Origin: an uncultured Holophagaceae bacterium
GTDB lineage: Bacteria > Acidobacteriota > Holophagae > Holophagales > Holophagaceae
Direction: 5' to 3'
NCBI GenBank assembly: GCA_903863195.1
Contig: CAIPAY010000116.1
Coordinates: 8,326 to 72,325, forward strand
Length of the DNA: 64,000 bases
Position numbers and translations under genes: made by a program
Shown here: piece after piece, positions 5,284 to 55,677 of the stretch
Numbering within the stretch: position 1 is the first letter of the stretch
Layout of the letters: each line of letters opens with the position of its first letter
The notes under the pieces: model-generated
What the model saw: only the letters and a program-made list of their open reading frames with translations
What the model was told of the DNA's origin: nothing
Databases searched by the model: none

Positions 5284-5284
5284 C

Positions 5285-16307: not shown

Positions 16308-17075
16308 TCAAGCATGGGGGGAGTGCCTGGGGCCGCTTGCCTGCCGCAACCTGGTTGGCTCGGGCCAGGGGTGATCCTGCAGGTCTGTCCGGGCCCGCTC
16401 GAGCCGCTCGGGACTGTCGATGGCGCACCGGTAGCCCGTGAGGGGGAAGCCTAAGAGCCGCCCGCTGGATATCAGGCCCGGGAAGACCTGCCTGGGGAAG
16501 TCACTATGGCCTACGGGAATCAGACTCAGCACAGCTGGGTCCAGGAGGTAGATCCCCGAGTTCACCCAGGGGGATTCAACCCCCTTTCGCTCTGCTTCCG
16601 TGGGACGCTCCAGCAGCCTCTGGATGCGCTGCTCCTCGTCGAGCACCACCACGCTATTGGAATGGGCACGCTGGTGGAGGAGCAGCGTGGCTAGGGCGGC
16701 CTTTTCCTGGTGGAAGCTCACCATGGCGGTAAGATCTTGGTCGGTCACCACATCGCCATAGTGCACAAGAATGGGGCCCGGCCCACCGAGCAGGTGTGCC
16801 GCGTGACGCACGGAACCTGCCGTGCCGAGCAGCTCCGCTTCCTCAACCAGTGCCAGCTTGAGCCCCCAGGCCGAGCCATCTCCGACATAGGCCCGGATGG
16901 CATCTGACCGATGGTGGAGGTTGAGCACCACCTCGGTGAAGCCATGGCGCGCAAGGTTCGCAAGAATGCGGTCAAGGATGGGGCGGCCATGGATATCCAG
17001 CAAAGGCTTGGGCAGCTCCAGCGTGAGCTCGCCCAGGCGTGTGCCTTTCCCGGCGCAGAGGACCATGGCTTTCAT
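16308..17075 (-). CDS. Sugar-1-phosphate nucleotidyltransferase (NTP_transferase family; HddC/GMP-like)
   Basis: MKAMVLCAGKGTRLGELTLELPKPLLDIHGRPILD... The G-x-G-T-R-L nucleotide-binding motif and ~250-aa length fit sugar-1-P guanylyl/thymidylyl-transferases. Confidence 0.85.
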   Translation of the reverse strand: MKAMVLCAGKGTRLGELTLELPKPLLDIHGRPILDRILANLARHGFTEVVLNLHHRSDAIRAYVGDGSAWGLKLALVEEAELLGTAGSVRHAAHLLGGPGPILVHYGDVVTDQDLTAMVSFHQEKAALATLLLHQRAHSNSVVVLDEEQRIQRLLERPTEAERKGVESPWVNSGIYLLDPAVLSLIPVGHSDFPRQVFPGLISSGRLLGFPLTGYRCAIDSPERLERARTDLQDHPWPEPTRLRQASGPRHSPHA

Positions 17076-17130
17076 GGGGCAGCTTCTCTCTTAAAGGGGG
17101 TGGGTGCCTGCTCGTGCAACTGAGCTGCGT

Positions 17131-18984
17131 TCAATAGCGTTGGAAATTGCCTTGGGCGTGGTCCACCTCGCGGAAGGAGAGGCTGTGATCGCCCCCGGGT
17201 TCCGAAATAAAGGCAGGGGTCAGGATCCTCGTGACACTCGGGTGCCTCTTCTCGATGATCTGGACGATGTCGTCGCGATAGAGGATGGAGGCGACCAGGA
17301 TCGTGTCCACACCCATGGCCTCAAGACTGGAGGGCGGCGAGATGACGTGCCCAAGCAGAGCCTGCCCCTGCCGGCTGACGCTCTGATCGAAGAGAGGGAT
17401 GTCGCTCTCCCGGAGGGCGGGGGAGGCCTTCAGGAGGGCGTTGGCGATGTTGCCAGCACCCCAGATTCCCAGCCGAGTATTTTGCGCAACCAGAGCCTCG
17501 AACTGGGGTTCATACCGGCCCTGGAAAGTCGAGAAGGGTTCCAGGTCATGCCGCTGAAGGCAGTGGGGGCAAGTTATGAGATTGGCCCCGAAGACCCAGA
17601 CATCCAGGTGGAGGCTGGTTCGGCTGCAGCTCCGACAGGAGATCTCGGCCGTACAACACCCCCGGAGATCGGGTTGGAGCAGCCTGAAGGTGCTGGGTGT
17701 ATAGAGGTAGGTGTTGCGGTATGCGTCGATCTTCTCCCCCAGGGCCTTGAACTCGGCTTCACTCATCCGGGAGACATTGACCAGGGGGCATCCATCTTCC
17801 AGGAACTTCTGTTTGTCCTTGATGATGCCGCGGCTACAAGCCTCGCGGAAAAGGTGGGTGCCGGGATAGACATTGATAAAGAAGATGCTCAGCCGGTATT
17901 CCAGGTGCTCCTTCCACCAGTCCAAGGTGTTGTTCGCGGTCTCCAGGGTCTCTTCCAGGTCACCGAAGATCAGGTTGCCCTGGACCTCGATCTCGGCCTC
18001 GCGGGTCAGCTTTAGTGCCTGCTCGATCTGGGCCCGGGTCGTGTGCTTCCGCATGCTCTTCAGGATGCGGTCGTCAGCACTCTCAATGCCGAGACTCAGG
18101 TAGGTGCACCCGGCTTCCTTCAGCTCCGCCAGCAGCTCCCGCGTCACCAGATCCACCCGGAGCTGGATGTCCCAGGTGATGCCATAGGCCTTGATCCTCC
18201 GGCAGAACTCTGAGGTCCGTTCGTGGTTCTCTGAGAACAGCTCGTCCTGGATGTTGACGTGGTCCAGGTGATAGGTACGGACTAGGTGGTCGAGCTCCTT
18301 GAATACGGCATCCAGGGACCGCTGACGATACCTTCGGCCCGTGGGGTGATAGCAGAAGGTGCACTCATAGGGACAGGAGCGGCTGCCCGCCATGGACAAC
18401 CGACGACGTGCGCCATCCGGAAAAAGCATGTCGAGGTAGGTTCCCAGCTCCAGGCCTTGATAGTCCGGCCAGGGCAGGGCGTCGATATCAGGGTTCTCCC
18501 TCCGCTTGGCAGTCTCACGAAGCTCCCCATCCTGGCGGTAGATGAGCCCCGCGATCGCCCCGGGATCCAATCCCTCCTCCAGCGCTTGGGCCAACTCGCA
18601 CATGGAGACCTCTCCCTCGCCGATGATGCCGAATTCCGCCCCGGTCCCCTCCATGACCACGACGGGTTCGCTGCTCAGAAGTCCCCCGCCGAGCACGGTG
18701 CGGATGCCCGGTTGGATCGCCCGCGTGCAATCCAGGATCTGCTTGACCATGTTGTAGTGCGGGCTAAGGCCACCCGTGCAGACCACATCGACACCATCCT
18801 CAAGCTGTTCTTTGAGAAGGTCGCTGATGGCTCGGGCGCTGTGGTTCAGGTTGAGGGTCCGCACCTCGAAACCCGCCCGCTTCATGGCGGCGGAGACATA
18901 GGCAATGCCAAGGGGGAACGTGTAGAAGTCCCCAAAATTAGGAGAGAACCGGGGCACCACGAACAGAAAACGCATGAATGTCAC
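17131..18984 (-). CDS. Cobalamin-binding (class B) radical-SAM enzyme with a C-terminal Zn-ribbon and C-methyltransferase-C-terminal-like domain
   Basis: N-terminal B12-binding-like Rossmann region (FLFVVPRF...PLGIAYVSAAMKRAGFEV). Radical-SAM cluster motif CPYECTFC. C-terminal CRSCSRT...CPHC, then RLGIWGAGNIANALL...DQSVSRQGQALLGHVI...VDTILVASILYRDDIVQ. GTG 18984 overlaps the gmhB stop (GTGA); an alternative ATG lies at 18975. Confidence 0.8.
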   Translation of the reverse strand: MTFMRFLFVVPRFSPNFGDFYTFPLGIAYVSAAMKRAGFEVRTLNLNHSARAISDLLKEQLEDGVDVVCTGGLSPHYNMVKQILDCTRAIQPGIRTVLGGGLLSSEPVVVMEGTGAEFGIIGEGEVSMCELAQALEEGLDPGAIAGLIYRQDGELRETAKRRENPDIDALPWPDYQGLELGTYLDMLFPDGARRRLSMAGSRSCPYECTFCYHPTGRRYRQRSLDAVFKELDHLVRTYHLDHVNIQDELFSENHERTSEFCRRIKAYGITWDIQLRVDLVTRELLAELKEAGCTYLSLGIESADDRILKSMRKHTTRAQIEQALKLTREAEIEVQGNLIFGDLEETLETANNTLDWWKEHLEYRLSIFFINVYPGTHLFREACSRGIIKDKQKFLEDGCPLVNVSRMSEAEFKALGEKIDAYRNTYLYTPSTFRLLQPDLRGCCTAEISCRSCSRTSLHLDVWVFGANLITCPHCLQRHDLEPFSTFQGRYEPQFEALVAQNTRLGIWGAGNIANALLKASPALRESDIPLFDQSVSRQGQALLGHVISPPSSLEAMGVDTILVASILYRDDIVQIIEKRHPSVTRILTPAFISEPGGDHSLSFREVDHAQGNFQRY

Positions 18985-19637
18985 CTCTTGGCTTCCATAA
19001 CCGGGGAATCGGTGGTGGAGGGTGCGCGGGCGAGTATCCAGCGCGCCGCTTCCAGAAGACTTCCACAGGTGTGGTCGGCGGAGGGCCTTTCAAGCAGCGA
19101 CTCAGAGGTCTGGATCAGGGGTGCGTAATGCTGCCCGGTCTGGACCCACACCGTCTTGCACCCTGCGCGCTGGCCCGCCAGGAGGTCCGTGGGTCGGTCC
19201 CCCACCAGGTAGCTCCGGGAGAGCTCGAGACCCAGCTCTTCCGCAGCGCGAAGCATGAGTCCCGGCCTGGGCTTGCGGCAGTCACAGTCCCTCCGGTAGG
19301 CCTCCAGGTCGGCCTTCGGATGATGGGGACAGTAGTAGAACCCATCGAGGAGAGGGGCGCCAGCAGCACTCAGCCTGCCCTCAATGTGGTCCTGGAGTAC
19401 CTCGACCCCAGACTCATCCAGGTGTCCCCGGGCGACGACGGCCTGGTTGCTGACCACGACCAGATCGTAGCCGGCGGTCTTCAGCAGCGCCAGGGCCTCG
19501 GGCACACCTGGGAGCAGGCGGATCTCCTCCTCGCGCCTCAGCAGGCCCACGTCTTCCACCAGCACGCCGTCCCTGTCCAGAAACACGGCGGGGCGCAGCA
19601 ACGGCAGAGTTTCTGAGGGCTTCCGAACTTGGCGCAT
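18981..19637 (-). CDS. gmhB: D-glycero-D-manno-heptose 1,7-bisphosphate phosphatase-like HAD-IIIA phosphatase
   Basis: AVFLDRDGVLV (DxDxV motif I), VVVSNQ (motif II), YYCPHHP...CDCRKPRPGL (GmhB Zn-loop and CRKP signature), and VGDRPTDLLAG (motif IV). Confidence 0.85.
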   Translation of the reverse strand: MRQVRKPSETLPLLRPAVFLDRDGVLVEDVGLLRREEEIRLLPGVPEALALLKTAGYDLVVVSNQAVVARGHLDESGVEVLQDHIEGRLSAAGAPLLDGFYYCPHHPKADLEAYRRDCDCRKPRPGLMLRAAEELGLELSRSYLVGDRPTDLLAGQRAGCKTVWVQTGQHYAPLIQTSESLLERPSADHTCGSLLEAARWILARAPSTTDSPVMEAKR

Positions 19638-19697
19638 GGGTCCTTGTCGGCAGGAAAGGAGTCCTGGGGAAGTATTAATGGGACGATGGCGCCCGCT

Positions 19698-20741
19698 TCA
19701 GACGAAGGGAAGGTGGTCGGGATCTGTGCACAGGAACTCAAGAATTGCCTCGTTCGACGCATGGGCCACGCAGTGGTGGTTGCAGTGCTGGGCCGGATCG
19801 ATCTTAAAGAAGGCCTCCTTCTCGTTCAGCCAGGCCTCCCGGAAGCGCTGCTCCTTGATGGAGAAGAGCAGCCCGCGCGGGTTGTAGGCCTTGTCCTGGC
19901 AGGAATACACGCTCAGATCCGCGCCGATGACAGGACGGATCTGGAGGAGGGGACACCAGTGGTAGCCCTTTTCAAAGGAGTGAAGCTGGGCGTGGTAGGC
20001 GTTCGAAAACTCGGTCCTGCCTTGCGTGTAGCCATGCACCAGAGCAATCTGTTCCCGCACGAGGGGCTCGATCCCGGCGTGGTAGCGGTTGGTGGTCTCC
20101 GCATCATTGCTCACGATCACGGGACTGAGCTTGATGCTGTCCACCCCGATGTCGGTCAGGAGCCGGACCAGCTCCGCAAGGTGGGCCGCGTTCTCCCTGT
20201 CCACCACCACGACGGCGCTGAGCGCACAGGGACCGCCCAGCTTCTGGAAGGCCTCCATGTTGGCAATGACCTTGCCGAACTCAGTCTCCTTCACGCGGCG
20301 GGCCTTGGCATAGCTGGGGCCATCCCAGCTGTCGATGCTCACCCTCACCCAGGTGCCATTGCGCGAGAAGGCTTCGGCGATGCGTCCCGCGAGGCGCGCA
20401 CCATTGGTGAGCGTGGCGAAGCGGATGCCGTGCTCCGCGAGCCGCTCCACGGTCTGCAGAAGGTAGGGATAGACGAGGGGCTCACCGCCGCCACTGAAGG
20501 TGACGGCCTCGACCTTCATCTCGACGAGGTCGTCCACGATCTCCATCATCTTGTCGAAGGGGATCTGGTCCCGCTCCACCATGGTCTCGCCGAGCTGGAA
20601 ATCCTCCTGGCGGTAGGCACAGAACCAGCAGTCGTGGTTGCATATGTTCGTGGGCTTTATCCGGACGTGAATGGGCGGCAGGAGCTCCCCCCGCTCACGA
20701 GGGAGGGAGCGCAGCTTCTCTGGAAAGTGGAAGATCTTCAT
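19698..20741 (-). CDS. Radical-SAM enzyme (non-B12) of unknown reaction
   Basis: IKPTNICNHDCWFCAY (CxxxCxxC) followed by a GGGEPL SAM-binding motif. The track ORF begins at TTG 20807, and in-frame ATGs lie at 20789 and 20741 (MKIFHFPEKL). The start is uncertain. Confidence 0.75.
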   Translation of the reverse strand: MKIFHFPEKLRSLPRERGELLPPIHVRIKPTNICNHDCWFCAYRQEDFQLGETMVERDQIPFDKMMEIVDDLVEMKVEAVTFSGGGEPLVYPYLLQTVERLAEHGIRFATLTNGARLAGRIAEAFSRNGTWVRVSIDSWDGPSYAKARRVKETEFGKVIANMEAFQKLGGPCALSAVVVVDRENAAHLAELVRLLTDIGVDSIKLSPVIVSNDAETTNRYHAGIEPLVREQIALVHGYTQGRTEFSNAYHAQLHSFEKGYHWCPLLQIRPVIGADLSVYSCQDKAYNPRGLLFSIKEQRFREAWLNEKEAFFKIDPAQHCNHHCVAHASNEAILEFLCTDPDHLPFV

Positions 20742-20766
20742 GCCCGAGTTGACGATGCCCTTGGGC

Positions 20767-21423
20767 CTATTCGAAGTAGATGAATTCATAGTCGCCGCCG
20801 TAGCCAAGGTCCTTGAGTAGCCAGATCCATTCCTCTTCGTCGAAGAAGCTCTCCGCAGTGAGAGCCCAGCACTGGAGGTTGAACAATTCCTGGAGGTTTC
20901 GGTAGCTCTCCACCATCAGGTACTGGCGCGGAGCGAGGCGGACCATCTCCTGCACAGCGGTCTTCACCTCAGAGAGGCGCAGGTTGTGCAGGGTCCCCAG
21001 GCTGATCACGAGATCAAAGCTGCCATCGGAGAATGGCAGCGGCGTGCGCAGGTCGTGTTCGAAGAGGAAGGGCCGGATGGCTTCCGGCGCAGTGGCTAGC
21101 CCGTGGCGCGAGATGTCGCAGCCTTGCAGCGTAGCTTCCGGCAGGAGCTGCTGGAGCTCATAGAGCAGATGCGCCTTGCCACAGCCCAGGTCGAGAATCC
21201 GAGAGCCGGGGCCCAAACCATAGAGTTCGATGAGACGCTGGGCCACGGGCCGCCAGCGGCCATCGTAGCGATAGCCGCCATAGCCATAACGGCGATCCCC
21301 ATCCCAGTAGTCGAACCCATACTGCCGGGCCACACCCATGGCCTCGACCTTGTGGTCCACCATGCGCGGCAGGCAGTCTCTGGTGGTGCGCTGGTGGAGG
21401 GGCGTGACGAGTCTCTGGAGCAT
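20767..21423 (-). CDS. Class I SAM-dependent methyltransferase
   Basis: SAM motif I RILDLGCGKAHLLYEL, an acidic residue after beta-2 (QGCDIS) and motif II FDLVISLGTLHNL. Confidence 0.8.
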   Translation of the reverse strand: MLQRLVTPLHQRTTRDCLPRMVDHKVEAMGVARQYGFDYWDGDRRYGYGGYRYDGRWRPVAQRLIELYGLGPGSRILDLGCGKAHLLYELQQLLPEATLQGCDISRHGLATAPEAIRPFLFEHDLRTPLPFSDGSFDLVISLGTLHNLRLSEVKTAVQEMVRLAPRQYLMVESYRNLQELFNLQCWALTAESFFDEEEWIWLLKDLGYGGDYEFIYFE

Positions 21424-21431
21424 GGCGGACC

Positions 21432-22352
21432 TCAGACCAGCAGCCGCTGGACGGTGGCCACGGCGGCTTCAACATGGAGACCGCAGGCCGTCATGAGACT
21501 GGCTTGGGAGCCATATCCCTCGGCGAAGGCATCGGGCAGCCCCAGACGTGCGAAGCGCTTGGGCACGGGAAAGGATTCCTCGGCCAGTACCTCTGCCACC
21601 AGGCTGCCCAGGCCTCCCGTGCGGTGGTGCTCCTCCAGGGTCAGCACGGCCCTCATTGGGGCCAAGTGAGCCTTCAGGGCCTCCAGGTCCAGGGGCTTTA
21701 GGGTGGGCAGGTGCAGCACTCCGGGCTCGTGACCGCTGGCGGCGAGCAAGTCTGCGGTCTTCAGGGCGAGGCTCGCCGCCGTGCCCGTGGTGATGAGCAG
21801 GATGTTCCGCCCCGACCGGAGCACCACCGGGGCGCCCAGGACAAACGGCTCGTCGGGCGTGACCACCGGATCTCCGCCCTTGCCCAGCCGGATGTAGAGG
21901 GGGCCGTCATAGTCCACGGTGGTCGGCATCAGCCGCTTCATCTCCGTGGCGTCCGCCGGAGCCAGAATCCCCATGCCAGGCAGGGGTCGCAGGATGGCGA
22001 TGTCCTCGGTGGCCTGGTGGGTCGGGCCCAGGGGCGCATAGACGAGGCCGCCCCCACTCCCGATCAGGCGGACCTTCGCCTTGTGCAGGCAAAGATCCAG
22101 GGCCAGCTGTTCGTAGCATCGCCGGGTGAGGAAGGTGGCAATGGTGTTGAGATAGACGACCCTTCCCTCCAGCGCCAGACCAGCGGCCATGCCAACCAGG
22201 GCTTGCTCGCTGATCCCCTCCATGAGGAACTGCTCGGGCAGTTCCTCCCGGAAAGCCTGGAGCGTCCCGGCCCCGAGGTCAGACCCGAGGAAGAGGATGC
22301 GGGGGTCCTTGCGGGCCAGCTCATGCACCTGGTTCAGACACGTGTTCCGCAT
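21432..22352 (-). CDS. Transketolase, C-terminal (pyrimidine-binding) subunit
   Basis: LMEGISEQALVGMAAGLALEGR...; ~306 aa, immediately downstream of the N-terminal subunit gene. Confidence 0.85.
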   Translation of the reverse strand: MRNTCLNQVHELARKDPRILFLGSDLGAGTLQAFREELPEQFLMEGISEQALVGMAAGLALEGRVVYLNTIATFLTRRCYEQLALDLCLHKAKVRLIGSGGGLVYAPLGPTHQATEDIAILRPLPGMGILAPADATEMKRLMPTTVDYDGPLYIRLGKGGDPVVTPDEPFVLGAPVVLRSGRNILLITTGTAASLALKTADLLAASGHEPGVLHLPTLKPLDLEALKAHLAPMRAVLTLEEHHRTGGLGSLVAEVLAEESFPVPKRFARLGLPDAFAEGYGSQASLMTACGLHVEAAVATVQRLLV

Positions 22353-22362
22353 GCGAGCCCCT

Positions 22363-23178
22363 TCAGCCCTTCAGGGCCGCGAACAGTTGATCGACTGTGG
22401 CGGAATTGAGGGCACTCTTGTGGTGCCAGGCCAGATCCCCTTCCAGGAAATCGATCCCCTTGCCCTTGACCGTATGGCAGATGACCGCAGAGGGACGTCC
22501 CGCCGCCAAGGGGAGAGTCTGGAACGTCTGCCGGAGGGCCCGGACGTCATGCCCATCCACCTCTGCCACAGCGAAACCGAAGGCCCGCCACTTGTCCGAG
22601 AAGGGCTCGAGCGGGAGGACCTCTGAAGTCCCGGCATAGGACTGCTGTTTGTTGTAGTCGACGATCACCACCAGCGAGTCGAGGCGGTGCTTGGCCGCGA
22701 TCATGGCCGCCTCCCAGGTCGACCCTTCATCACACTCGCCGTCCCCCAGGATGACAAAGGTGCGATAGTCGGCGTGGCTGAGACGCCCTGCCAGCGCATA
22801 CCCCAAGCCGATGGGCAATCCGTGCCCAAGACTGCCCGTGCTGGCCTCTACGCCAGGGACCTTGCCGCGCTCCGGGTGCCCGCCCAGCAGGGAGCCAGGA
22901 CGGCAGAAGGTGGAGAGCACCTCTTCGGGGAAGAACCCCTTGTCCTGCAGGAGGGCGTAGAGCGCCAGGCAGCCATGTCCCTTGCTGAGGACGCAGCGAT
23001 CCCGGAGGGGCCAGTCCGGGCGGACAGGATCCAGGCGGAGCACCTCGTCATAGAGCACCCGGAGGATCTCCACCAGCGAGAGAGCCGAAGGCAGATGTCC
23101 GCGCCCCCCCGCGATCATGGTCTCCACGACCTTTCGCCGAAGTGCGAGGGAACGGGCATCGAGCATGGTTCGATCCAT
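22363..23178 (-). CDS. Transketolase, N-terminal (TPP-binding) subunit
   Basis: GHLPSALSLVEILRVLY...GSLGHGLPIGLG...ILGDGECDEGSTWEAAM (the GDG-x-EG TPP motif). Confidence 0.85.
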   Translation of the reverse strand: MDRTMLDARSLALRRKVVETMIAGGRGHLPSALSLVEILRVLYDEVLRLDPVRPDWPLRDRCVLSKGHGCLALYALLQDKGFFPEEVLSTFCRPGSLLGGHPERGKVPGVEASTGSLGHGLPIGLGYALAGRLSHADYRTFVILGDGECDEGSTWEAAMIAAKHRLDSLVVIVDYNKQQSYAGTSEVLPLEPFSDKWRAFGFAVAEVDGHDVRALRQTFQTLPLAAGRPSAVICHTVKGKGIDFLEGDLAWHHKSALNSATVDQLFAALKG

Positions 23179-23201
23179 CCTTGGGCGGGGGTCAGGGCGG
23201 T

Positions 23202-24263
23202 TCAGGGGGCGGGAGGCCAGGGATCAGCCTGGGGGTGATGCTGAAGATGGTTCAGCAATTCCCGGGCCATGGCCAGCTTCCGGGCGAGGAGCTCCCTCCT
23301 AGCCGTGACGCCCTCCGCCCCCAAGGCAAACTGCCTGCGGGCCAGGCCGGCGGGGGTGAACTCATTTAGGATGATCAGGCACCAGGAGAGGCCGAACAGC
23401 GGACTGAGGAGGTCCAACCTAGCCTCGAGCACCTGGTGCCCCGGGAAGGCCTCGAGGGCGAGGGTGCGAAAGAGGGCCTTCAAGCCCTCCTGAAGCTTGG
23501 GGCGCGGGTGCAGGATGAAGTCCGCGATGATCTTGACGGGATCCTCCCTCCCGAAGTATTCGAAATCAAAGAAGGCGACGGTCCCCTCGGGCTGTCGGAT
23601 GGCGTTGTGAAAGGCGAAATCGGAGGGACCGAAGGTTTGGCTCCCAACTTCGAGGATTCCAGTGGGTCCAAAGGCCCCCGCAGCCTGCCGGGCAAAGGCG
23701 CCCAGGGCCGGCTCGAACTGGCGATCCAGGAAGACCTGTAGCTGCAGGTATTCGGGTGCCAGGCTCGGCTCGGGCGGGCGGTCACCGAGGAGGTTCCGGC
23801 GCAAGGCCAGGTTGCTGAGCAGGTCCTCCAGGGTGAAACGGGCGAAGGACGCGGGAGCGTGCGCTCCGAGATCCACGCGTCGCGCCAGCTCCTGAAGCGC
23901 CTGCAGGAAGGCCACCGCCTGACGCACGTCTGAGTCGCGAGCGCCCTCCGCGAGAGGCACCCCTTCCAGGAAGGAGTAGAGGGCCGTTCCCAGCCGCCGA
24001 TCCATGGCCACAGGCTCCGGAACACAGGTGATGCCGCCGGCCCGGAGAACCTGGAAGGCTGCGAACTCGGTCCCCTGGCGGTCTCGAGGATCGCCCTCAT
24101 GCCGGTGGTAGTGCTTGAGCGCCAGCGGCTTCCCGGAGGTCTCAACCCGATAGACCCGGCTGTTGCCGCTGCCGCCGATGGGGAGCACCCCCTCCGCAGG
24201 GATCGCCTCCCCGCAGATGGTGCTGGCCCAGGTAGCCAGACCGGCAGTTCCAGGGTCCTTCAT
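23202..24263 (-). CDS. Aminoglycoside/choline-kinase-type phosphotransferase (APH family)
   Basis: From ATG 24263 (MKDPGTAGLATW...): GNSRVYRVE...LALKHY (ATP-lysine region), DFAFHNAI and FFDFEYFG (catalytic and Mg loops). ATG 24263 overlaps the upstream stop (ATGA). The 408-aa track ORF is an upstream extension. Confidence 0.7.
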   Translation of the reverse strand: MKDPGTAGLATWASTICGEAIPAEGVLPIGGSGNSRVYRVETSGKPLALKHYHRHEGDPRDRQGTEFAAFQVLRAGGITCVPEPVAMDRRLGTALYSFLEGVPLAEGARDSDVRQAVAFLQALQELARRVDLGAHAPASFARFTLEDLLSNLALRRNLLGDRPPEPSLAPEYLQLQVFLDRQFEPALGAFARQAAGAFGPTGILEVGSQTFGPSDFAFHNAIRQPEGTVAFFDFEYFGREDPVKIIADFILHPRPKLQEGLKALFRTLALEAFPGHQVLEARLDLLSPLFGLSWCLIILNEFTPAGLARRQFALGAEGVTARRELLARKLAMARELLNHLQHHPQADPWPPAP

Positions 24264-24880
24264 GCCAGACCCAGGACTAGGTCCGCAACTTCCACCCAGC
24301 TCCGGACGTGGCGCCCCGAGAAGTCCGCGGGGCAGGCCCCGAGGGGCTGGTAGAGGATCTGCGCCACCGAAGGGGGGAAACCCTCTTCCAGGAACACCTC
24401 CAGGAGGTCGTCGACAAAGGCCGTGCAACCCCGCGCGGCGATCCGGCGCACTTTTCCCTTGCGGGTGGGTTCGAAATCCACAGAGGCAAGTGGCCCACCC
24501 GCCTCCCAGGTCAGGTGCCGAGCATCAAGAAAGCTTCGCGCTGAGGCATGCAGATCGACCTGGCGGCCCTGAAGAGGGGCCGTCCTGGTCTTATGGCTTA
24601 CCACACAGAGGGTGATGCCCCGCTGCGCGAGCCTGTCGAGGCTCTCGGCCGCCTGGGGCGCCAGCTCGGCCTCAGCCATCCCCGGTCCGTAGGCTAGCGC
24701 CTGCAGCTCCCGCCATTGGCCCTCGCCCCCAGGCTGGGTCCGTAGGTAGTCCCGAATGGCCAGCTTGCCCCGGCTCGCAACCAGATTCGGAACCCAGGCC
24801 CGTGCGACGGACAGGCGCTCGAACAGGCGGTCGTAGACCACGAGGGTGTTGTCGAGATCCAGGCCTAAGGTGACTGGCAT
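24260..24880 (-). CDS. HAD-superfamily hydrolase (probable phosphatase)
   Basis: MPVTLGLDLDNTLV (DxDxT motif I), CVVSHKT (motif II) and AFVDDLLEV (motif IV-like). The track start at 24913 is TTG, so ATG 24880 is preferred. Confidence 0.65.
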   Translation of the reverse strand: MPVTLGLDLDNTLVVYDRLFERLSVARAWVPNLVASRGKLAIRDYLRTQPGGEGQWRELQALAYGPGMAEAELAPQAAESLDRLAQRGITLCVVSHKTRTAPLQGRQVDLHASARSFLDARHLTWEAGGPLASVDFEPTRKGKVRRIAARGCTAFVDDLLEVFLEEGFPPSVAQILYQPLGACPADFSGRHVRSWVEVADLVLGLA

Positions 24881-24934
24881 GGCGTCACCATAGCACAGGG
24901 ATTTGGCTCCCAAGATCCGGCTGAGGCCCGCCCT

Positions 24935-26035
24935 TCAGGCCCCAAGGAAACCTGCGATCTGGGCAGCCACGTGCTCCACCTGAAAGGAGCTGAGGAACTG
25001 GTGAATGGGCAGAGAGAGGATGCGTTCGGCCTGGGCTTCACACCTGGGAAAGCTTCCCTTGGCGTGGCCCAGGGCCTGGGCTGCGGGCTGCAGGTGGATC
25101 GGGACAGGATAGTGGATGGCGGTCTCGATACCCTGCTCGAGCAGGTAGGCCTTGAGCCGGTCGCGGACTTCGACCTGGATCACGAACAGGTGGAAGGAGC
25201 TTTCAGCACCTGGCATCGGAGGGGGCCGGAAGGCCGCGGACGGGAGGAGTCGCTCGTAGCTTGCGGCATTTCGGCGGCGACGCTCGAGGACCGAGGGCAG
25301 ATGACGCAAGCGCAGGCGCAGGATCTCCGCCTGGAGCGTGTCGAGGCGGGACACCGTCCCCCAGGAGGCCACCGTATTGCGGTCCTGCATGCCATGGGAA
25401 CGAGCCAACCGCACCCGGGCCGCCAGCGCGGCATCGCCCGTGACCAGGAAGCCGGCGTCCCCGGCGGCATTCAGGTTCTTGAGTGGATGGGCTGAGAAGC
25501 AGCCGATGTCACCGAAGGTTCCGGCCATGCGGCCGTCAAGCCGCGTGCCAATGGCCTGTGCCGCGTCCTCGATGACCGCCAGACCGTGCTGCTGGGCCAG
25601 AGCCAGGATCGCCGGCAGGTCCACCGGGTGCCCGGCGAGGTGAACCGGCATGATCGCCCGGGTCCTCGGCGTGATGGCCGCGGCGATGGCAGCGGGATCG
25701 ATGTTCTGATCCTCCCGAACATCCGCGAAGACAGGGGTGGCGCCCACGGCCACGATGGCGGCCGTGGAGGCCACGAAGGAGTTCGGCGGGGTGATGACCT
25801 CATCCCCGGGGCCAATGTCCAGGGCCCTCAGGCCCAGGATTAGGGCATCGGTGCCCGAGTTCAGGGCCACGACATGGGCCGCGCCGAGGTAGGCGGACAG
25901 CTCCTGTTCGAGCGCTTCGATGGCCGCACCGCCGACGAAATCTCCACGAGAGAAGACGCCCTCCAGGAGCAGCATCAGCTCCTCTCGTTCCTCTGCGAAC
26001 TGGGCTGGGAAATCCACGTAGGGGACACGGAGCAT
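24935..26035 (-). CDS. DegT/DnrJ/EryC1/StrS-family PLP sugar aminotransferase (copy 1)
   Basis: ALNSGTDALILGLRALDIGPGDEVITPPNSFVAST...; catalytic Lys context FSAHPLKNLNAAGDAG. Confidence 0.85.
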   Translation of the reverse strand: MLRVPYVDFPAQFAEEREELMLLLEGVFSRGDFVGGAAIEALEQELSAYLGAAHVVALNSGTDALILGLRALDIGPGDEVITPPNSFVASTAAIVAVGATPVFADVREDQNIDPAAIAAAITPRTRAIMPVHLAGHPVDLPAILALAQQHGLAVIEDAAQAIGTRLDGRMAGTFGDIGCFSAHPLKNLNAAGDAGFLVTGDAALAARVRLARSHGMQDRNTVASWGTVSRLDTLQAEILRLRLRHLPSVLERRRRNAASYERLLPSAAFRPPPMPGAESSFHLFVIQVEVRDRLKAYLLEQGIETAIHYPVPIHLQPAAQALGHAKGSFPRCEAQAERILSLPIHQFLSSFQVEHVAAQIAGFLGA

Positions 26036-26041
26036 GACGGT

Positions 26042-27148
26042 CTATCCGTTCTGGTAGAAGGCGCGGACCACATCTACCACGGAGGCCTGGTCCTCCTCGG
26101 TGAGGTGCTGATCGACGGGGAAGCTGATGACCTCCCGGGCGTGCCGGTCCGTTACCGGGAAGTCGCCCGCGACATAGCCCAGCTCTCTCAATCCCTTCTG
26201 CTGGTAGAGCGGGATCGGATAGTGGATCTTGGCCTCTACGCCATGCTCCAGGCAGTATGCGAAGAGGGCATCCCGCTGCTCGGCAAACACCATGTAGAGG
26301 TGGAATACCCGCTTCATGCCAGAGCGGCGAGGTGGAATGCGAACTTCCGGGATCTGCCCAAAGGCCGCGTCATAGTAGGCCCCGTTCCGAATCCTCGACT
26401 CCGTGATCGCTCCCGTCTGAGGGATGAGCCAATTGCCGATGACCGCCTGCACAGAGTCCAGGCGCGAGTTGCAGCCCAGGATCTCGATCTCATCCCGGTT
26501 CTTCAGGCCGTGGTTGCGGAGGAGGCGGAGCCGAGCGTCCATGTCGTCGTCATTGGTGACGATGATGCCGCCATCCCCCCAGACATTGAGGTTCTTGAGG
26601 GGATGCAGAGAGAACCCGCCGGCGATGCCCCAGGTGCCGGAGCGGCGCCCGTTCCACTCGGAGAGGATTCCCTGGCAGGCGTCTTCGACGACGGGAAGCT
26701 GATGGCGCTCCGCAATGGCCATGAGCTGCGTCATGTCCACGACCTCGCCGGTGAAGTGGACTGGCATGATGGCCCGAGTCCGCGGCGTGATGACCGCCTC
26801 GACCTGGTCCACGTTCATGCAGAAGTGGTCCTCGCAGTCCACGAACACGGCCCTGGCCCCGGTCTCATGGATAGCCCCCACCGTGGCGATGAAGGTGTTG
26901 GCGGCCGTGATGACCTCGTCCCCAGGCCCGAGCCCAAGCGCCTTCAGGGAGAGCTTGAGCGCGTCGGTCCCAGAGCCTACCCCGATGGCATGCCGCACGC
27001 CCAGCATGGCGGCGAAGGCCCTCTCGAACTCCCCGACGGACTTGCCCAGGGTGAAATCACCCGTGGCAACCAGTTGCGCCAGGGCCTCCAGGATCGGGGC
27101 CGGGTCAGCAAACTGTTGCGCGAGGTAGGAGTAGCGCACGGTAGTCAT
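26042..27148 (-). CDS. DegT/DnrJ/EryC1/StrS-family PLP sugar aminotransferase (copy 2)
   Basis: GVGSGTDALKLSLKALGLGPGDEVITAANTFIATV...; catalytic Lys context FSLHPLKNLNVWGDGG. Confidence 0.85.
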   Translation of the reverse strand: MTTVRYSYLAQQFADPAPILEALAQLVATGDFTLGKSVGEFERAFAAMLGVRHAIGVGSGTDALKLSLKALGLGPGDEVITAANTFIATVGAIHETGARAVFVDCEDHFCMNVDQVEAVITPRTRAIMPVHFTGEVVDMTQLMAIAERHQLPVVEDACQGILSEWNGRRSGTWGIAGGFSLHPLKNLNVWGDGGIIVTNDDDMDARLRLLRNHGLKNRDEIEILGCNSRLDSVQAVIGNWLIPQTGAITESRIRNGAYYDAAFGQIPEVRIPPRRSGMKRVFHLYMVFAEQRDALFAYCLEHGVEAKIHYPIPLYQQKGLRELGYVAGDFPVTDRHAREVISFPVDQHLTEEDQASVVDVVRAFYQNG

Positions 27149-27195
27149 GAGGCGTCCTGGATGGGGTCAGAGATGAATGAGGCTGGACCTGTCAG

Positions 27196-28197
27196 CTAGG
27201 CCAGATGGATCGCCTGCATGGTGCGGATGTTGGAGTACCTAGCCTGGCTGAGAGCCTCGGGCATGAGTCCCGCATGAAAGGCCCGCACCAGGTCTGCCAC
27301 AGCCTCCTCGATGGTGTGCCTGGGCAGGAAGCCGAGATCACGGTGGATCCGGTCAGAGGAGATGCGGTAGGAACGGTTGTCTTCCGTGGGGGTGGTCTCC
27401 ACGGTGATGCGAGGACCGACCACGGACCGCACGATCTCAGCGATCTCGGCCACCGAGTGGTTCTGGTAGCCAGCATTGAAGGTTTTTCCGTCGATGGCGG
27501 CATCCGGGTAGGCCAGGGTCTTCACGTAGAGGTCGGTCATGTCCTGGATGTGGAAGTTGGGGCGGGCTTGGGCACCGCCAAAGACCTTGATCTTGCCGTG
27601 GCAAAGGGCATGGGCCGTCATGATGTTCACCGTGAGGTCCAGGCGCAGGCGGGGTGACCAGCCACAGACCGTGGCGGGACGCAGGATCAGGGTGGTAAAG
27701 CCCGGTGCGCGCTTCTCCCGGAGGACCTCCTCGCAGAGGGCCTTGTACTTCGAATAGTCGGTGAGGGGCTCCAGGCTGAGGTCCTCAGTGACCTGGGACT
27801 CGGACTTTACGCCATAGACACTGGAGGAGGACGCGTAGATGAAGCGCTGCACGCCCGCAGCCTTGCTGAGTTCCACCAGCGGTCCGAAGGCATCGAAGTT
27901 GATGCTGCGCCCTAGCTGCGGATCCAGCTCGAAGCTCGGATCATTGGAGATGCAGGCCAGATGGATGACCGCATCGCAGCCGGCCAGAATGCGCCGGAGC
28001 AGTGCCTGGTCCCTGAGGTCTCCCTTGACCTCTTCGAGGTTCGGATCGCCCTTCACAGCCGCGAGCACGTCCCCGCCATAGATGTAAAGATCCAGGACCG
28101 TCACCCGGTACCCCGCGGCCAGCAGCTTGGGCACCAGGACGGAGCCCACGTAGCCTGCGCCACCGGTGACCAGCACCCGCTTGATGGGCCCACTCAC
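27196..28197 (-). CDS. NAD-dependent NDP-sugar epimerase/dehydratase (extended SDR)
   Basis: VLVTGGAGYVGS Rossmann motif, ASSSSVYG and YSKYK (YxxxK catalytic motif). Confidence 0.8.
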   Translation of the reverse strand: MSGPIKRVLVTGGAGYVGSVLVPKLLAAGYRVTVLDLYIYGGDVLAAVKGDPNLEEVKGDLRDQALLRRILAGCDAVIHLACISNDPSFELDPQLGRSINFDAFGPLVELSKAAGVQRFIYASSSSVYGVKSESQVTEDLSLEPLTDYSKYKALCEEVLREKRAPGFTTLILRPATVCGWSPRLRLDLTVNIMTAHALCHGKIKVFGGAQARPNFHIQDMTDLYVKTLAYPDAAIDGKTFNAGYQNHSVAEIAEIVRSVVGPRITVETTPTEDNRSYRISSDRIHRDLGFLPRHTIEEAVADLVRAFHAGLMPEALSQARYSNIRTMQAIHLA

Positions 28198-28781
28198 GCA
28201 TGACCTCCTTCGGAAAGGGACTCGAGCAGCCGGTCCGTGAGCTGATGCAGGAGGACCGCATGGGCGGACTCCACGGCCCCATAGGCCCGGCTCGACACAT
28301 GGAAGTTGAGGTCACCCAGAGTGCGGAGGGGATTATCCGGCGCGAAGCCTGAGAAGGTCAGAAGACCGCACCCCCTCTCCTTCGAGAAGGCGGAGGCCAG
28401 GAGGATGTTGGGGGATCGACCGGAGGAACTGACAGCAATCATCAGGTCACCGGAATCCACCCAGAGCTCCGAGAGGTTTCGAAAGGCCTGCTCGTAGCCA
28501 TGGTCGTTGGCCTGCGCCGTGAGCAGGGAGGGCTCGTGCAGCACCTGGGCCCGGATCCGGGCCGAGTGGGCGAGATCCGTCTGCACGTGGGCCGCGATAG
28601 CGGCACTGCCCCCGTTGCCCAGAACCAGGACTTTGTGCCCGGTCGCACGGACCTGCTTTAGCCGCTCGAGGGACTGGGTGAGGCCTTCCTCCAGACCCAG
28701 GCTGCGGGCCTGGCAATCCGTCACCTGGGTGTCCGCCAGGAGCTGGGCCAGGGTCTGAATCCAGGTGGGAGGGGCAGTCAT
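28194..28781 (-). CDS. gmhA: SIS-domain sugar-phosphate isomerase (phosphoheptose isomerase GmhA-like)
   Basis: VLVLGNGGSAAIAAHVQTDL...LMIAVSSSGRSPNIL; ~195 aa, the typical GmhA size and motifs. The stop overlaps the downstream start (4-nt overlap). Confidence 0.75.
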   Translation of the reverse strand: MTAPPTWIQTLAQLLADTQVTDCQARSLGLEEGLTQSLERLKQVRATGHKVLVLGNGGSAAIAAHVQTDLAHSARIRAQVLHEPSLLTAQANDHGYEQAFRNLSELWVDSGDLMIAVSSSGRSPNILLASAFSKERGCGLLTFSGFAPDNPLRTLGDLNFHVSSRAYGAVESAHAVLLHQLTDRLLESLSEGGHA

Positions 28782-28788
28782 AGGAACC

Positions 28789-29886
28789 TCAGGCGAGGAT
28801 CGCAGTGATGTGCTCGGCCAGGCTGTCGGGACTCAGCGAGCTGCGGTGTCCCACCGTGGCTACCGCATGGGCGCCCACGACGTTGCCCAGGAAGCCCAGG
28901 ATCTCGGCGGGGATCCCGATGGCCACACAGAGGGAGGCGATGGAGAGCACCGCGTCCCCCGCCCCCACCCGATCGGTGATGTGAGTGGACAGGGACGGGG
29001 AGGTGCCGATGAGTCCATCCTCATCGCAGACGAGGTTGCCGTCCCGGCCCCGGGTGATCAGGAACTGGTGGGTGCCCAGCTTGGCGGCAACGGACTTCAT
29101 CAGTTCGGCAGTGTTCCGGGCCTTGCTGCGGGTCTCCAGCCGCAGCTCCTTCTCGGAGAGGCTGCTGAAATCGGCGCGGGGGTATTTCGAGATGGTGTTG
29201 AAGCCGTGGTTGTCGGCGTTGGATTGGGTGTTCACGGCCAGGAACCGGGCCTTCTCACAGAGCAGGTCCACGGCCCGGGGCACCATCATTCCGTGCCCAT
29301 AGTCAGCCACGATGACCACATCGAAGTCGGCCAGCCGGGCCTCCAGTTCCTCGCAGAGAGCCTGGGCCACCGGTCCGTCCTCTTCCAGGTAAGTGAGGTC
29401 ATAGACCTCGAAGAGCTTCTGGAGGGGGTAGTGCTCGACGTAGCGCCGCTTGGTCAGGGTCGGAGCCTCGGGCTGATAGATAAAGATGGGCTTGATCCTC
29501 GGGTGGAGGCTCTCCCGGAGGAAGGACTCTGAAGGATCCGGTTGCCCTCCCCGGCTGCCCAGGATCGTAAGGACTGTCACATCCTGCGCGAAGGCGGCGA
29601 CATTGTTGGCGATGGCCAGCACGCCACCAGCGAACCGTTCCGAGTGCAGATACCGGGTGGCCAGGATGGGTTCCTTCCCCGACTTGCCCAAGGTCTCGCA
29701 GTAGTGGTACTCGTCGAGGATGGCCTCACCCACCACCAGCACCTTCAGCCCCGCGATGGCCTTAAGCCAGTGGATCACCGTGTCAGCCGGATGGTGGCTT
29801 CCGAAGTCCCGGAGGTAGTCCTGGACCTCCTGGGAGAGGGCTGAAAACGGACTCGTCGCTTGCTTGATCTCGGCTATCATGCTCAC
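28789..29886 (-). CDS. PfkB-family sugar(-phosphate) kinase resembling the HldE/RfaE kinase domain
   Basis: KVLVVGEAILDEYHYCETLGKSGKEPILAT...GGVLAIANNVAAF...DRVGAGDAVLS. The N-terminal pattern matches heptose-7-P kinase domain I, and no fused adenylyltransferase domain is present. Confidence 0.7.
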   Translation of the reverse strand: MSMIAEIKQATSPFSALSQEVQDYLRDFGSHHPADTVIHWLKAIAGLKVLVVGEAILDEYHYCETLGKSGKEPILATRYLHSERFAGGVLAIANNVAAFAQDVTVLTILGSRGGQPDPSESFLRESLHPRIKPIFIYQPEAPTLTKRRYVEHYPLQKLFEVYDLTYLEEDGPVAQALCEELEARLADFDVVIVADYGHGMMVPRAVDLLCEKARFLAVNTQSNADNHGFNTISKYPRADFSSLSEKELRLETRSKARNTAELMKSVAAKLGTHQFLITRGRDGNLVCDEDGLIGTSPSLSTHITDRVGAGDAVLSIASLCVAIGIPAEILGFLGNVVGAHAVATVGHRSSLSPDSLAEHITAILA

Positions 29887-30881
29887 CCCCTTGGGCTCAG
29901 GTACTTGTGCCAGTCCCGGGTGGCCTCTCGGACCGACTCTGGATCCCAGACCGGAGCGCTGCGCCAGGCCTCGATGTGCTGGAGCATCTGGGCCACACCC
30001 GCCTCGAAGGGCACGGTGGCCTGCCAGCCCAGCCTTGAGGCGATGAGCCGCGTGTCGGCAAAGGTGACGTCCGGCTCGCCCGGCCGCTTGGGAACATGGA
30101 CGACCTCGCCCCCCAGGAGCTCCACCAGGCGGTTGATGCTGTAGGACCCGCCGCTGCCCACGTTCAAGGCCATACCCGAGAGGTCGGACCGGGCCGCCGC
30201 CAGAAAAGCGTCCACCACATCCGAGACGAAGGTGAAGTCCCGGGTCTGGGTGCCATCGCCCACCACGGTGTAGGGCTTCCCGGCCAGCTTCTGGGCGAGG
30301 AAGACCCCGAAGACCGCCCCGTAGGTGCCAGAGGTGCGAGACCTGGGTCCGTAGACATTGAACATGCGGAGAGAGAGCACGGGCAGTCCGTAGATCCCAT
30401 GCCAGGCCAGCAGCAGTTCCTCGCCCATGAACTTGCTGAGGGCATAGGGATACATGGGCCGGATGGCTGCGGTTTCCGGGGTCGGCACCACGTCAGGCAG
30501 GCCATAGCAGGTGGAAGAGGCCGCATAGAGAACCCGCTTCACTCCCGCGAGTCGGGCGGCCTCCGCCACGTAGGCACAGCCATCCACGTTGGTGGTGTGG
30601 TAGTCGAGGGGGCTCTGGATCGAGGGGACGATGTCTGCCAGGCCCGCGAAGTGGAAGACCCAGTCCACGCCCGTCATCAAGGGGGCGAGGGTCGCAAAGT
30701 CCCGGACATCCACGGGCGCGAACCTGAGCCTGGGGTGGTCCACTACACCGGCAAGATTTTCCCGCCTCCCGGTCGCCAGGTTATCCACCACCGTCACGGC
30801 ATGGCCTTGGGCCAGTAGCCGCTCCACGAGATGGCTCCCGATGAACCCCGCGCCTCCGGTCACAAGAGTCTGCTTGGTCAT
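29883..30881 (-). CDS. NAD-dependent NDP-sugar epimerase/dehydratase (extended SDR)
   Basis: TLVTGGAGFIGSHLVERLL, ASSTCYG and YALSK (YxxxK). The stop overlaps the next gene's start by 4 nt. Confidence 0.8.
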   Translation of the reverse strand: MTKQTLVTGGAGFIGSHLVERLLAQGHAVTVVDNLATGRRENLAGVVDHPRLRFAPVDVRDFATLAPLMTGVDWVFHFAGLADIVPSIQSPLDYHTTNVDGCAYVAEAARLAGVKRVLYAASSTCYGLPDVVPTPETAAIRPMYPYALSKFMGEELLLAWHGIYGLPVLSLRMFNVYGPRSRTSGTYGAVFGVFLAQKLAGKPYTVVGDGTQTRDFTFVSDVVDAFLAAARSDLSGMALNVGSGGSYSINRLVELLGGEVVHVPKRPGEPDVTFADTRLIASRLGWQATVPFEAGVAQMLQHIEAWRSAPVWDPESVREATRDWHKYLSPRG

Positions 30882-39543: not shown

Positions 39544-39551
39544 GGAGCAGC

Positions 39552-55654: not shown

Positions 55655-55677
55655 AGAAGCTCTGGTAGCCTTCCAGC

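Follow-up and report, generated by a model that had tools for sequence, protein, structure and literature searches.

The 64,000-nucleotide stretch of DNA analyzed here (the window), from an uncultured Holophagaceae bacterium (GCA_903863195.1, contig CAIPAY010000116.1), contains a single minus-strand operon of 15 genes (16308–30881), defined by open reading frame (ORF) listing together with Pfam and NCBIfam scans, in which a split transketolase is encoded among relatives of the enzymes that make nucleotide-activated heptoses. The gene identities, the conservation of the gene set, the signature of the transketolase and the displacement of a nucleotidyltransferase are observations. The operon is the local version of a widespread cassette, proposed to make a nucleotide-activated heptose-like or longer sugar of a surface or flagellin glycan; we put a probability of roughly 0.4 on its acting by two-carbon extension of a phosphorylated aldose, followed by an isomerase/kinase/phosphatase/nucleotidyltransferase route. 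From the 5′ end of the minus strand, the genes are as follows.

29883–30881, minus strand: SDR1, extended short-chain dehydrogenase/reductase (SDR) of epimerase/oxidoreductase type (Pfam Epimerase, 4e-59)
28789–29886, minus strand: PfkB sugar kinase, HldE-domain-I-like, short form without nucleotidyltransferase domain (Pfam PfkB)
28194–28781, minus strand: SIS-domain sugar-phosphate isomerase, divergent GmhA relative (Pfam SIS_2)
27196–28197, minus strand: SDR2, extended SDR (Pfam Epimerase, 6.6e-37)
26042–27148, minus strand: DegT-family sugar aminotransferase, accessory (Pfam, 1.1e-101; lysine in SLHPLK)
24935–26035, minus strand: DegT-family sugar aminotransferase, accessory (Pfam, 1.8e-105; lysine in SAHPLK)
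24260–24880, minus strand: HAD206, capped HAD-fold putative phosphatase (DLDNT motif; AlphaFold and Foldseek)
23202–24263 (ORF 23202–24428), minus strand: APH-fold small-molecule kinase of a distinct family (Pfam APH, 1.1e-9)
22363–23178, minus strand: TK_N, diphosphate-binding subunit of the split transketolase (Pfam Transketolase_N, 1.9e-42)
21432–22352, minus strand: TK_C, pyrimidine-binding and C subunit of the split transketolase (Pfam Transket_pyr and Transketolase_C)
20767–21423, minus strand: class I S-adenosylmethionine (SAM) methyltransferase (Pfam Methyltransf_25/31/11)
19698–20807, minus strand: radical-SAM enzyme without B12 domain, accessory (Pfam Radical_SAM, 2.7e-23; CNHDCWFC)
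18981–19637, minus strand: GmhB-type HAD-IIIA bisphosphate phosphatase (Pfam HAD; NCBIfam PRK08942, TIGR00213)
17131–18984, minus strand: B12-binding radical-SAM enzyme (Pfam B12-binding and Radical_SAM)
16308–17075, minus strand: NTP_transferase-fold sugar-1-phosphate nucleotidyltransferase (Pfam NTP_transferase, 6.6e-32)

An earlier sequence-only reading of this DNA had listed these genes and coordinates as one minus-strand operon with 4-nt start/stop overlaps; the ORF listing and domain scans bear this out, the overlaps lying at four junctions (29883–29886, 28194–28197, 24260–24263 and 18981–18984). The APH gene most likely starts at the ATG at 24263 (353 aa), in an ATGA overlap with its upstream neighbor. 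Tailoring enzymes apart, kinases and phosphatases are each encoded twice, and an isomerase, a ketol-transferase and a nucleotidyltransferase once.

The transketolase is the most distinctive component. We aligned 70 cassette transketolases with E. coli TktA, whose numbering is used throughout. The cofactor, metal and catalytic positions H26, H66, H100, G114, D155, N185, D381, E411 and H473 are kept in 70/70, as is R358, and H261 in 67/70. The acceptor side is remodeled: H461 is replaced by Gly and D469 by Leu in every sequence, F434 by Ile in 69, R520 by Lys in 68 and S385 by Gly in 61, and the signature reads GSGGGLVYAPLGPTHQ in the TK_C of the window. It is established for transketolase that the acceptor's D-configured 2-hydroxyl is hydrogen-bonded by D469 and the substrate phosphate gripped by H461, S385, R358 and R520. 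Because D469, H461, S385 and R520 are replaced, the substrate must differ from what the pentose-phosphate pathway uses, and the cassette enzyme is very probably an active thiamine diphosphate (ThDP)-dependent ketol-transferase with another acceptor, as judged from residue conservation. Compared with a pentose-phosphate transketolase, it has the ThDP, metal and catalytic residues, and of the residues recognizing substrate phosphate and hydroxyl groups only R358. The sequence-only reading had left room for the pair being an ordinary pentose-phosphate transketolase; with H461G and D469L universal and the catalytic residues kept, this is not the case.

Among solved structures, the best matches are 6yak for TK_N (1.7e-66) and 6yaj for TK_C (6.2e-56), both from the biochemically proven split-gene transketolase of Carboxydothermus hydrogenoformans (PMC7661550). 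The two systems share the two-gene N and C architecture and all ThDP, metal and catalytic histidine positions, but the Carboxydothermus enzyme keeps the TH...GED motif, the Ser and the Arg, whereas the cassette has G, L, G and K at H461, D469, S385 and R520. The conserved H100 indicates a hydroxylated ketol donor, not pyruvate as in 1-deoxy-D-xylulose 5-phosphate synthase (PMC7661550). Both transketolase types coexist on plasmid pDCAR1 of Solidesulfovibrio carbinolicus DSM 3852, a cultured carrier (L094, NZ_CP026539.1; L numbers denote loci), where two split pairs (4908–6676 and 14918–16780) lie ~10 kb apart in one pseudaminic-acid locus. The canonical-type pair keeps H461/D469 and neighbors FabG, a methyltransferase and an ATP-grasp enzyme; the cassette-type pair (G/L) reads GNGGGMVYAPLGPTH. 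The cassette TK_N of pDCAR1 is intact in frame yet absent from the gene table of the plasmid database. Cyanobacteria (L010, L019, L049), whose Calvin cycle requires a canonical transketolase, also have the cassette transketolase, there as an extra copy.

The cassette is widespread. A scan of one genome per species, with the APH alignment as query, returned at least 578 species-level genomes; the 80 best loci were fetched and their gene content was determined by tblastn and ORF clustering. These 80 come from Verrucomicrobiota, Planctomycetota, Omnitrophota, Nitrospirota, Acidobacteriota, several proteobacterial classes, cyanobacteria (Microcoleus; a Crocosphaera watsonii plasmid), DPANN archaea and Methanosarcinales, the archaeal carriers being L034, L045, L060 and L072. 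The recurring unit is [SDR]-[PfkB kinase]-[SIS]-SDR-HAD-APH-TK_N-TK_C-methyltransferase. Since this order recurs in the 80 loci across many phyla, chance did not bring the genes of the window together. Of the fetched loci, 50 extend by at least 8 kb to either side (full loci); all gene counts rest on these, and the components were present as follows.

HAD206: 49/50
TK_N: 48/50
TK_C: 47/50
PfkB kinase: 40/50 (36 as ~510-aa forms)
SDR2: 39/50
Methyltransferase: 37/50
SDR1: 28/50
SIS: 25/50
Zn-alcohol dehydrogenase (absent from the window; follows the methyltransferase): 22/50
DegT: 19/50
Radical SAM: 13/50
GmhB-like: 6/50

The transketolase is present in 39 of the 40 kinase-bearing full loci, and its linkage to PfkB persists where APH is absent (L091, L092). 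SDR2 lies directly upstream of the HAD206–APH–transketolase block, and the methyltransferase follows TK_C, in most relatives. In the nearest relatives, a JGI metagenome contig (L004) and Geothrix limicola (L006), the order is SDR1-kinase-SIS-SDR2-HAD206-APH-TK_N-TK_C; in L004 the methyltransferase and radical-SAM genes come directly downstream, and in L006 they lie nearby on the opposite strand. On pDCAR1, the order is pseB-pseC-HAD206-APH-TK_N-TK_C-methyltransferase-radical SAM, ending in a TIGR04372 glycosyltransferase; a NeuB-kinase-hypothetical-SIS group lies near. Other cultured carriers, besides Geothrix limicola, are Crocosphaera watsonii WH 8501 (plasmid pCW1) and Terasakiella sp. PR1. 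Some loci, mainly deltaproteobacterial variants, encode a ~320–330-aa protein between kinase and SIS (L051, L053, L063, L066, L082, L029, L025; L095, 17510–18475) with faint deoxyhypusine-synthase/ArgZ-like Rossmann similarity; on pDCAR1, the operon encoding this protein begins with a short NeuB-family gene. One 77-kb cassette contig (L014, CALQJI020000015.1) is labeled as a Klebsiella pneumoniae metagenome-assembled genome, probably by a binning error, and is not to be read as enterobacterial carriage.

The two most constant partners of the transketolase are HAD206 and the APH-fold kinase. HAD206 has no sequence match in Pfam, NCBIfam or PDB, and a profile–profile comparison with GmhB gave just 31% probability, around motif II. 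Its motifs DxDNT, SHKT, K143 and DD are invariant in two family alignments, and its AlphaFold model (mean confidence score, pLDDT, 97.4) adopts a capped HAD fold, for which Foldseek returned HAD-IA phosphatases, deoxyribonucleotidases, NANP and CbbY (TM 0.5–0.72). The APH protein has no NCBIfam hit; its model (pLDDT 90.5) found only generic neighbors at TM ~0.5–0.6, namely corramycin phosphotransferase, LicA, APH(9), NahK, homoserine kinase II and MtnK. PDB sequence and profile searches with the two proteins returned nothing informative. Of 1.84 billion representatives (50% identity clusters), 1119 match the APH family at E ≤ 1e-30. Nine fetched loci encode HAD206 and APH as one ~541-aa protein (L018, L024, L034, L042, L047, L058, L060, L069, L072), a length also seen in ~15% of the top 150 APH-family representatives.

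The activation enzymes resemble those of heptose synthesis at a distance. The labels GmhA-like and HldE-domain-I-like given by the sequence-only reading, like the label HddC-like, denote resemblance only: the NCBIfam scores are far under the curated cut-offs. SIS scores 62 bits against gmhA (TIGR00441; cut-off 209) and is 23% identical to E. coli GmhA; it keeps the phosphate-binding serines, H61 and H180, carries E65D and Q172E as do 35/35 cassette relatives, and has D169 deleted, which places it outside the GmhA equivalogs by score and by the H61/E65/Q172/H180 set. The kinase matches rfaE_dom_I (TIGR02198) best, at 105 bits (cut-off 345), and only HldA in PDB (4e84, 8.6e-12); it is 23% identical to E. 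coli HldE and keeps the catalytic Asp264. Its many relatives at 50–70% identity are mostly ~510-aa proteins with an N-terminal CTP_transf_like domain. The GmhB-like phosphatase comes closest to its cut-offs (PRK08942, 143.5 versus 178; TIGR00213, 134.9 versus 149.6), is 39% identical to E. coli GmhB and keeps D11, D13, the Cys/His zinc loop, R110, K111 and D136; it has the full residue set of GmhB and formally misses equivalog status by scores just under the cut-offs. GmhB-like genes also lie inside the cassette in archaea and cyanobacteria, which generally have no housekeeping lipopolysaccharide-heptose genes, and this fits a required GmhB step. The NTP_transferase protein scores 132 bits against mannose-1-phosphate guanylyltransferase, 118 against MurU (cut-off 250; 6e-34) and 72 against HddC (cut-off 300), all below cut-off, and tblastn found no cytidylyltransferase-like domain anywhere in the window, which thus encodes no protein qualifying as a dedicated heptose-1-phosphate nucleotidyltransferase (HldE domain II/HldC or HddC).

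The nucleotidyltransferase step has been displaced in the lineage of the window. In the ~510-aa relatives, the cytidylyltransferase-like domain is N-terminal and the PfkB kinase C-terminal, the reverse of E. coli HldE; this N-terminal domain accompanies the kinase in 36 of the 40 kinase-bearing full loci, and nearly all of the ~50 long-form kinases aligned have an intact GxFDxxHxGH motif in it. The motif is degenerate (HPGY) only in L004 (10001–11527) and L006 (10001–11518). Most cassette relatives have no NTP_transferase, their sole nucleotidyltransferase being the domain fused to the HldE-like kinase. The window, a Mesoterricola locus (L017) and the unrelated L093 combine a short kinase with an NTP_transferase and a GmhB-like protein; L006 adds an NTP_transferase and a GmhB-like gene that are 64% and 61% identical to those of the window, and orthologs of the NTP_transferase in L006 and L017 are 61–64% identical. 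Because the fused domain is degenerate or lost in the lineage in which NTP_transferase and GmhB-like genes appear, we conclude that the NTP_transferase has replaced it and works in the pathway of the kinase. The "hybrid" pairing of PfkB kinase and NTP_transferase pointed out by the sequence-only reading is therefore present in the window, but as a lineage-specific replacement.

The tailoring genes are more variable. SDR1 carries SSTCYG...YALSK without the TDE dehydratase motif, and both SDRs are of epimerase/oxidoreductase type rather than TDE-type dehydratases. The catalytic lysine predicted for both DegT proteins is present in each, as S(A/L)HPLK, and CxxxCxxC occurs in both radical-SAM proteins. 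The B12 radical-SAM enzyme matches BchE, HpnJ and PhpK best, all far under the NCBIfam cut-offs, has weak 22–31% matches in other loci, is specific to this lineage and is probably a tailoring enzyme of methyltransferase type. This enzyme is not conserved across the fetched loci, and a DegT pair occurs in 19/50, which marks both as accessories rather than core.

From family membership and gene content, on which every step, the substrate, the order and the product rest, the following route can be drawn. HAD206 and the APH kinase, fused or adjacent, would place a phosphate handle on an aldose. The split transketolase would then move a two-carbon ketol unit to the aldose phosphate, yielding a non-standard ketose phosphate, as suggested by its intact catalytic machinery and remodeled acceptor/phosphate pocket (D469L, H461G, S385G, R520K). 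The GmhA-like isomerase may convert this ketose phosphate to an aldose phosphate, the HldE-like kinase would phosphorylate the anomeric position (C1), and the GmhB-type enzyme would take off the distal phosphate. A nucleotidyltransferase, of NTP_transferase fold here and presumably the fused cytidylyltransferase-like domain in most relatives, would give the nucleoside diphosphate (NDP)-sugar, which the two SDRs, two aminotransferases, methyltransferase and two radical-SAM enzymes could tailor and the neighboring tetratricopeptide repeat (TPR)-glycosyltransferases could transfer to the target.

Several observations weigh against this order of events. Locus L002 encodes SDR1-kinase-SIS-SDR2-DegT-DegT and a GmhB-like protein without transketolase, HAD206 or APH, and its enzymes are 54–77% similar to those of the window, level with transketolase-containing relatives; because of this equal similarity, isomerase and kinase may use one substrate with or without the transketolase, which makes it less plausible that the skeleton received by the isomerase is set by the transketolase. 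Conversely, HAD206-APH-transketolase-methyltransferase occurs without kinase or SIS within 8–10 kb, for example in L009, L026 and L037, HAD206–APH occurs without transketolase in L050 and L052, and just half of the full loci have SIS. Pfam scans of L009 and L026 brought neither a nucleotidyltransferase nor a transferase to light. SDR2, of a type that normally acts on NDP-sugars, accompanies the transketolase block, which would suit chemistry at the NDP-sugar level; the kinase–phosphatase fusion fits consecutive steps better than a first and a late step; and the folds of APH and HAD206 yield no clue to the substrate.

In a first alternative, which we consider rather unlikely, the transketolase acts late. 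An ordinary NDP-heptose, made by the kinase, SIS, GmhB and nucleotidyltransferase of the cassette or by housekeeping enzymes, would first be oxidized by an SDR or Zn-alcohol dehydrogenase. The transketolase would attach two carbons to the resulting aldehyde or ketone, still NDP-linked; the chain-extended or C-branched nucleotide sugar formed would then be reduced and methylated. H461G and S385G clear side chains from the mouth of the channel, and D469L abolishes contact with the 2-hydroxyl, changes that would suit a bulky acceptor with a ring α-carbon; the NDP-sugar-type SDR2 nearly always adjoins the transketolase block, and the Zn-alcohol dehydrogenase follows the methyltransferase in 22 of the 50 loci. 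Blocks without nearby kinase or SIS (L009, L026) could draw on housekeeping ADP-heptose, and transketolase-free loci of the L002 type fit an optional tailoring module. However, we know of no transketolase that accepts nucleotide sugars, the retained R358 and K/R520 suggest a simple phosphate ester, and HAD206 and APH, fused in some loci and the most constant partners of the transketolase, are left without a role.

The separability of the transketolase block from the kinase/SIS module could also mean that HAD206, APH, transketolase and methyltransferase, with or without the dehydrogenase, build a separate small substituent, a phosphorylated, methylated ketol or polyol that decorates a heptose-type sugar or a neighboring nonulosonic acid; we regard this as no more probable than a late-acting transketolase. 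The block often lies in or beside nonulosonic-acid genes: it directly follows pseB-pseC on pDCAR1, and NeuB-like genes occur in L016, L050, L051, L053, L074 and L086, beside L091 and in the window. D469L resembles engineered transketolases that accept non-hydroxylated aliphatic aldehydes, and teichoic-acid pathways offer a precedent in which Zn-dehydrogenase-type ketose-phosphate reductases and cytidylyltransferases make CDP-alditols. Yet no transferase that could attach such a unit is conserved alongside the block, the sole nucleotidyltransferase in most loci is the one fused to the HldE-like kinase, and transketolase–kinase adjacency persists even in minimal variants (L092).

That the transketolase merely boosts sedoheptulose-7-phosphate for an ordinary NDP-heptose where the pentose-phosphate pathway is weak, as in DPANN archaea, is very unlikely: its catalytic residues are intact, its closest solved structure is a genuine transketolase, archaeal carriers exist and many archaea have no full pentose-phosphate pathway (PMC7661550), but the residues recognizing standard substrates are replaced in 70/70, cyanobacterial carriers already need the canonical enzyme, pDCAR1 has a canonical-type split transketolase ~10 kb away, and HAD206 and APH are given no role. 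Salvage of the 5-deoxyribose/7-deoxysedoheptulose type, with an APH-family kinase, a HAD phosphatase and a transketolase, was also considered and set aside, as SIS and GmhB retain residues for phosphate handling and neither a nucleosidase nor a phosphorylase gene is conserved.

Returning to early two-carbon extension, a more specific version, which we hold to be doubtful, is that the product is a widespread, so far unrecognized higher-carbon sugar. It would be an octose or nonose, made when the transketolase adds two carbons to a hexose or heptose phosphate with a C2 configuration or substituent that fits the D469L pocket. The reverse-order nucleotidyltransferase–kinase would activate it, and carriers from Acidobacteriota to DPANN archaea would display it on their flagellins, S-layers or other surface glycans. 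The octose-like or branched product proposed by the sequence-only reading is shown by nothing in the present analysis.

The components come from families already known, and in general logic the cassette is akin to the heptose and lincomycin octose pathways. ADP-L-glycero-β-D-manno-heptose is made by GmhA, HldE and GmhB, and GDP-D-glycero-α-D-manno-heptose by GmhA, HddA, GmhB and HddC. The cassette shares with these pathways four enzyme folds and their logic (SIS isomerase, anomeric kinase, HAD-IIIA phosphatase, nucleotidyltransferase), but its SIS and kinase are ~23% identical to the E. coli enzymes, with E65D and Q172E in SIS; the kinase fusion of its relatives is reverse-ordered, and the window has lost the fused domain and has an NTP_transferase. 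The heptose pathways themselves have no transketolase, APH kinase or second HAD, whereas the cassette has all three.

In the GDP-octose branch of lincomycin biosynthesis, the LmbR transaldolase acts with the LmbN isomerase, LmbP kinase, LmbK phosphatase and LmbO guanylyltransferase. By description, this branch would parallel the cassette in encoding a C–C bond-forming enzyme together with isomerase, kinase, phosphatase and NTP_transferase, and in its SDR and DegT tailoring. The lincomycin-like logic put forward by the sequence-only reading, C–C bond formation and then isomerase/kinase/phosphatase/nucleotidyltransferase, survives as the reading that uses more of the genes than any other, but Pfam finds no transaldolase or GHMP-kinase domain among the operon proteins. 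The cassette has a two-carbon, ThDP-dependent transketolase versus a three-carbon transaldolase and a PfkB versus a GHMP kinase, and it is found in surface or flagellin glycan islands of many phyla rather than in an actinomycete antibiotic cluster.

Animal sialic acid synthesis (ManNAc kinase, Neu5Ac-9-phosphate synthase, NANP) and Kdo synthesis (KdsA, KdsC, KdsB) may be alike in logic only: the acceptor receives a phosphate handle, a C–C bond is formed, a capped or uncapped HAD phosphatase takes the handle off, and nucleotide activation comes last. NANP (4knw) is one of many HAD-IA structures that the HAD206 model resembles, and the cassette often neighbors NeuB-type genes; in contrast, the synthase of these pathways is phosphoenolpyruvate (PEP)-dependent and adds three carbons, and the cassette has a two-carbon ThDP transketolase and an APH-fold kinase. 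The MupP/AmgK/MurU shunt likewise combines a HAD phosphatase, an APH-fold sugar kinase and a uridylyltransferase of NTP_transferase fold, and MurU is the second-best NCBIfam match of the NTP_transferase; yet that match, at 118, falls short of the cut-off of 250, the APH protein shows no particular relation to NahK/AmgK-type anomeric kinases, and most relatives have no NTP_transferase.

In the full-text literature searched, which leaves most subscription journals outside its coverage, we found the cassette described nowhere, nor any transketolase belonging to a heptose or flagellin-glycan cassette. Known routes to higher-carbon or branched sugars employ PEP-dependent synthases, transaldolases and YerE-type enzymes. 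If the transketolase indeed forges the backbone or branch bond, the cassette would represent a route to bacterial higher-carbon or branched sugars undescribed in the literature searched, and its presence in at least 578 species-level genomes would point to an abundant unseen component of microbial surface glycans. As a natural variant at the positions that engineers mutate for acceptor scope (D469, H461, S385, R520), the enzyme is also of interest for biocatalysis, and the cultured carriers make the cassette directly testable and experimentally tractable.

The operon is set in a surface or flagellin glycan island of a flagellated, sigma-54- and MutL-bearing bacterium. The island (~13.4–48.3 kb) has 62–67% G+C versus 70–76% in the flanks, and this lower value suggests horizontal acquisition. 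The flanks encode a sigma-54 activator, MutL, UvrA, PrmA, PEGA/TPR/HEAT proteins and fliW-csrA; together with the nearest relatives in Holophagae (Geothrix, Mesoterricola), they rule out an actinomycete antibiotic or natural-product cluster. The fliW-csrA pair of the window (55181–55654 and 55669–55929, both plus strand; ~24 kb from the operon) marks the host as flagellated; the window yielded no flagellin gene. The cassette of L004 and L006 is flanked by fliC/flaG/fliD/fliS on one side and TPR-glycosyltransferases on the other, and that of L091 lies beside flbD-motA-motB. Used as queries, the flagellar proteins of L004 and L006 had no match among the 80 scan loci and detected flagellar genes only in Holophagae-type loci; flagellin glycosylation cannot be generalized to all carriers, which also include cyanobacteria and DPANN archaea.

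Besides the operon, the island encodes three glycosyltransferases, two of them fused to TPR repeats and one of these of the TIGR04372 family, which is also annotated in the cassette locus of pDCAR1.

12079–13320, minus strand: GT2 glycosyltransferase fused to TPR repeats (Pfam Glycos_transf_2 and TPR)
13426–16128, minus strand: 900-aa GT4-family glycosyltransferase at the 3′ end of the strand run of the operon (Pfam Glyco_trans_1_4, Glycos_transf_1)
31011–32654, minus strand: TPR and TIGR04372-family glycosyltransferase, directly upstream of the operon (NCBIfam TIGR04372, 9.5e-60)

A 55% identical homolog of the GT4 protein adjoins the kinase module in L002. The sigma-54 activator ORF (8650–12090, plus strand; 1146 aa, 76% G+C) has a ~830-residue N-terminal region without Pfam hits and overlaps long antisense ORFs with high GC3 (8932–11310, minus strand), which makes its annotated start and extent tentative. 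The island further contains a TylCIII-type C-methyltransferase with a WbuC cupin, and a legionaminic-acid-type set of NeuB, hydrolyzing 2-epimerase, CBS-domain nucleotidyltransferase, PglD-like acetyltransferase, DegT, 4,6-dehydratase and oxidoreductases. Inside this set, directly upstream of NeuB (39540–40607), lies an acetolactate-synthase/YerE-like ThDP enzyme (TPP_enzyme_N/M/C; 37700–39543, plus strand), for which the gene call in the identical locus L001 gives 601 aa. For one glycan island to encode two ThDP-dependent C–C bond-forming enzymes is unusual; this one could introduce a branch or an uncommon acyl group.

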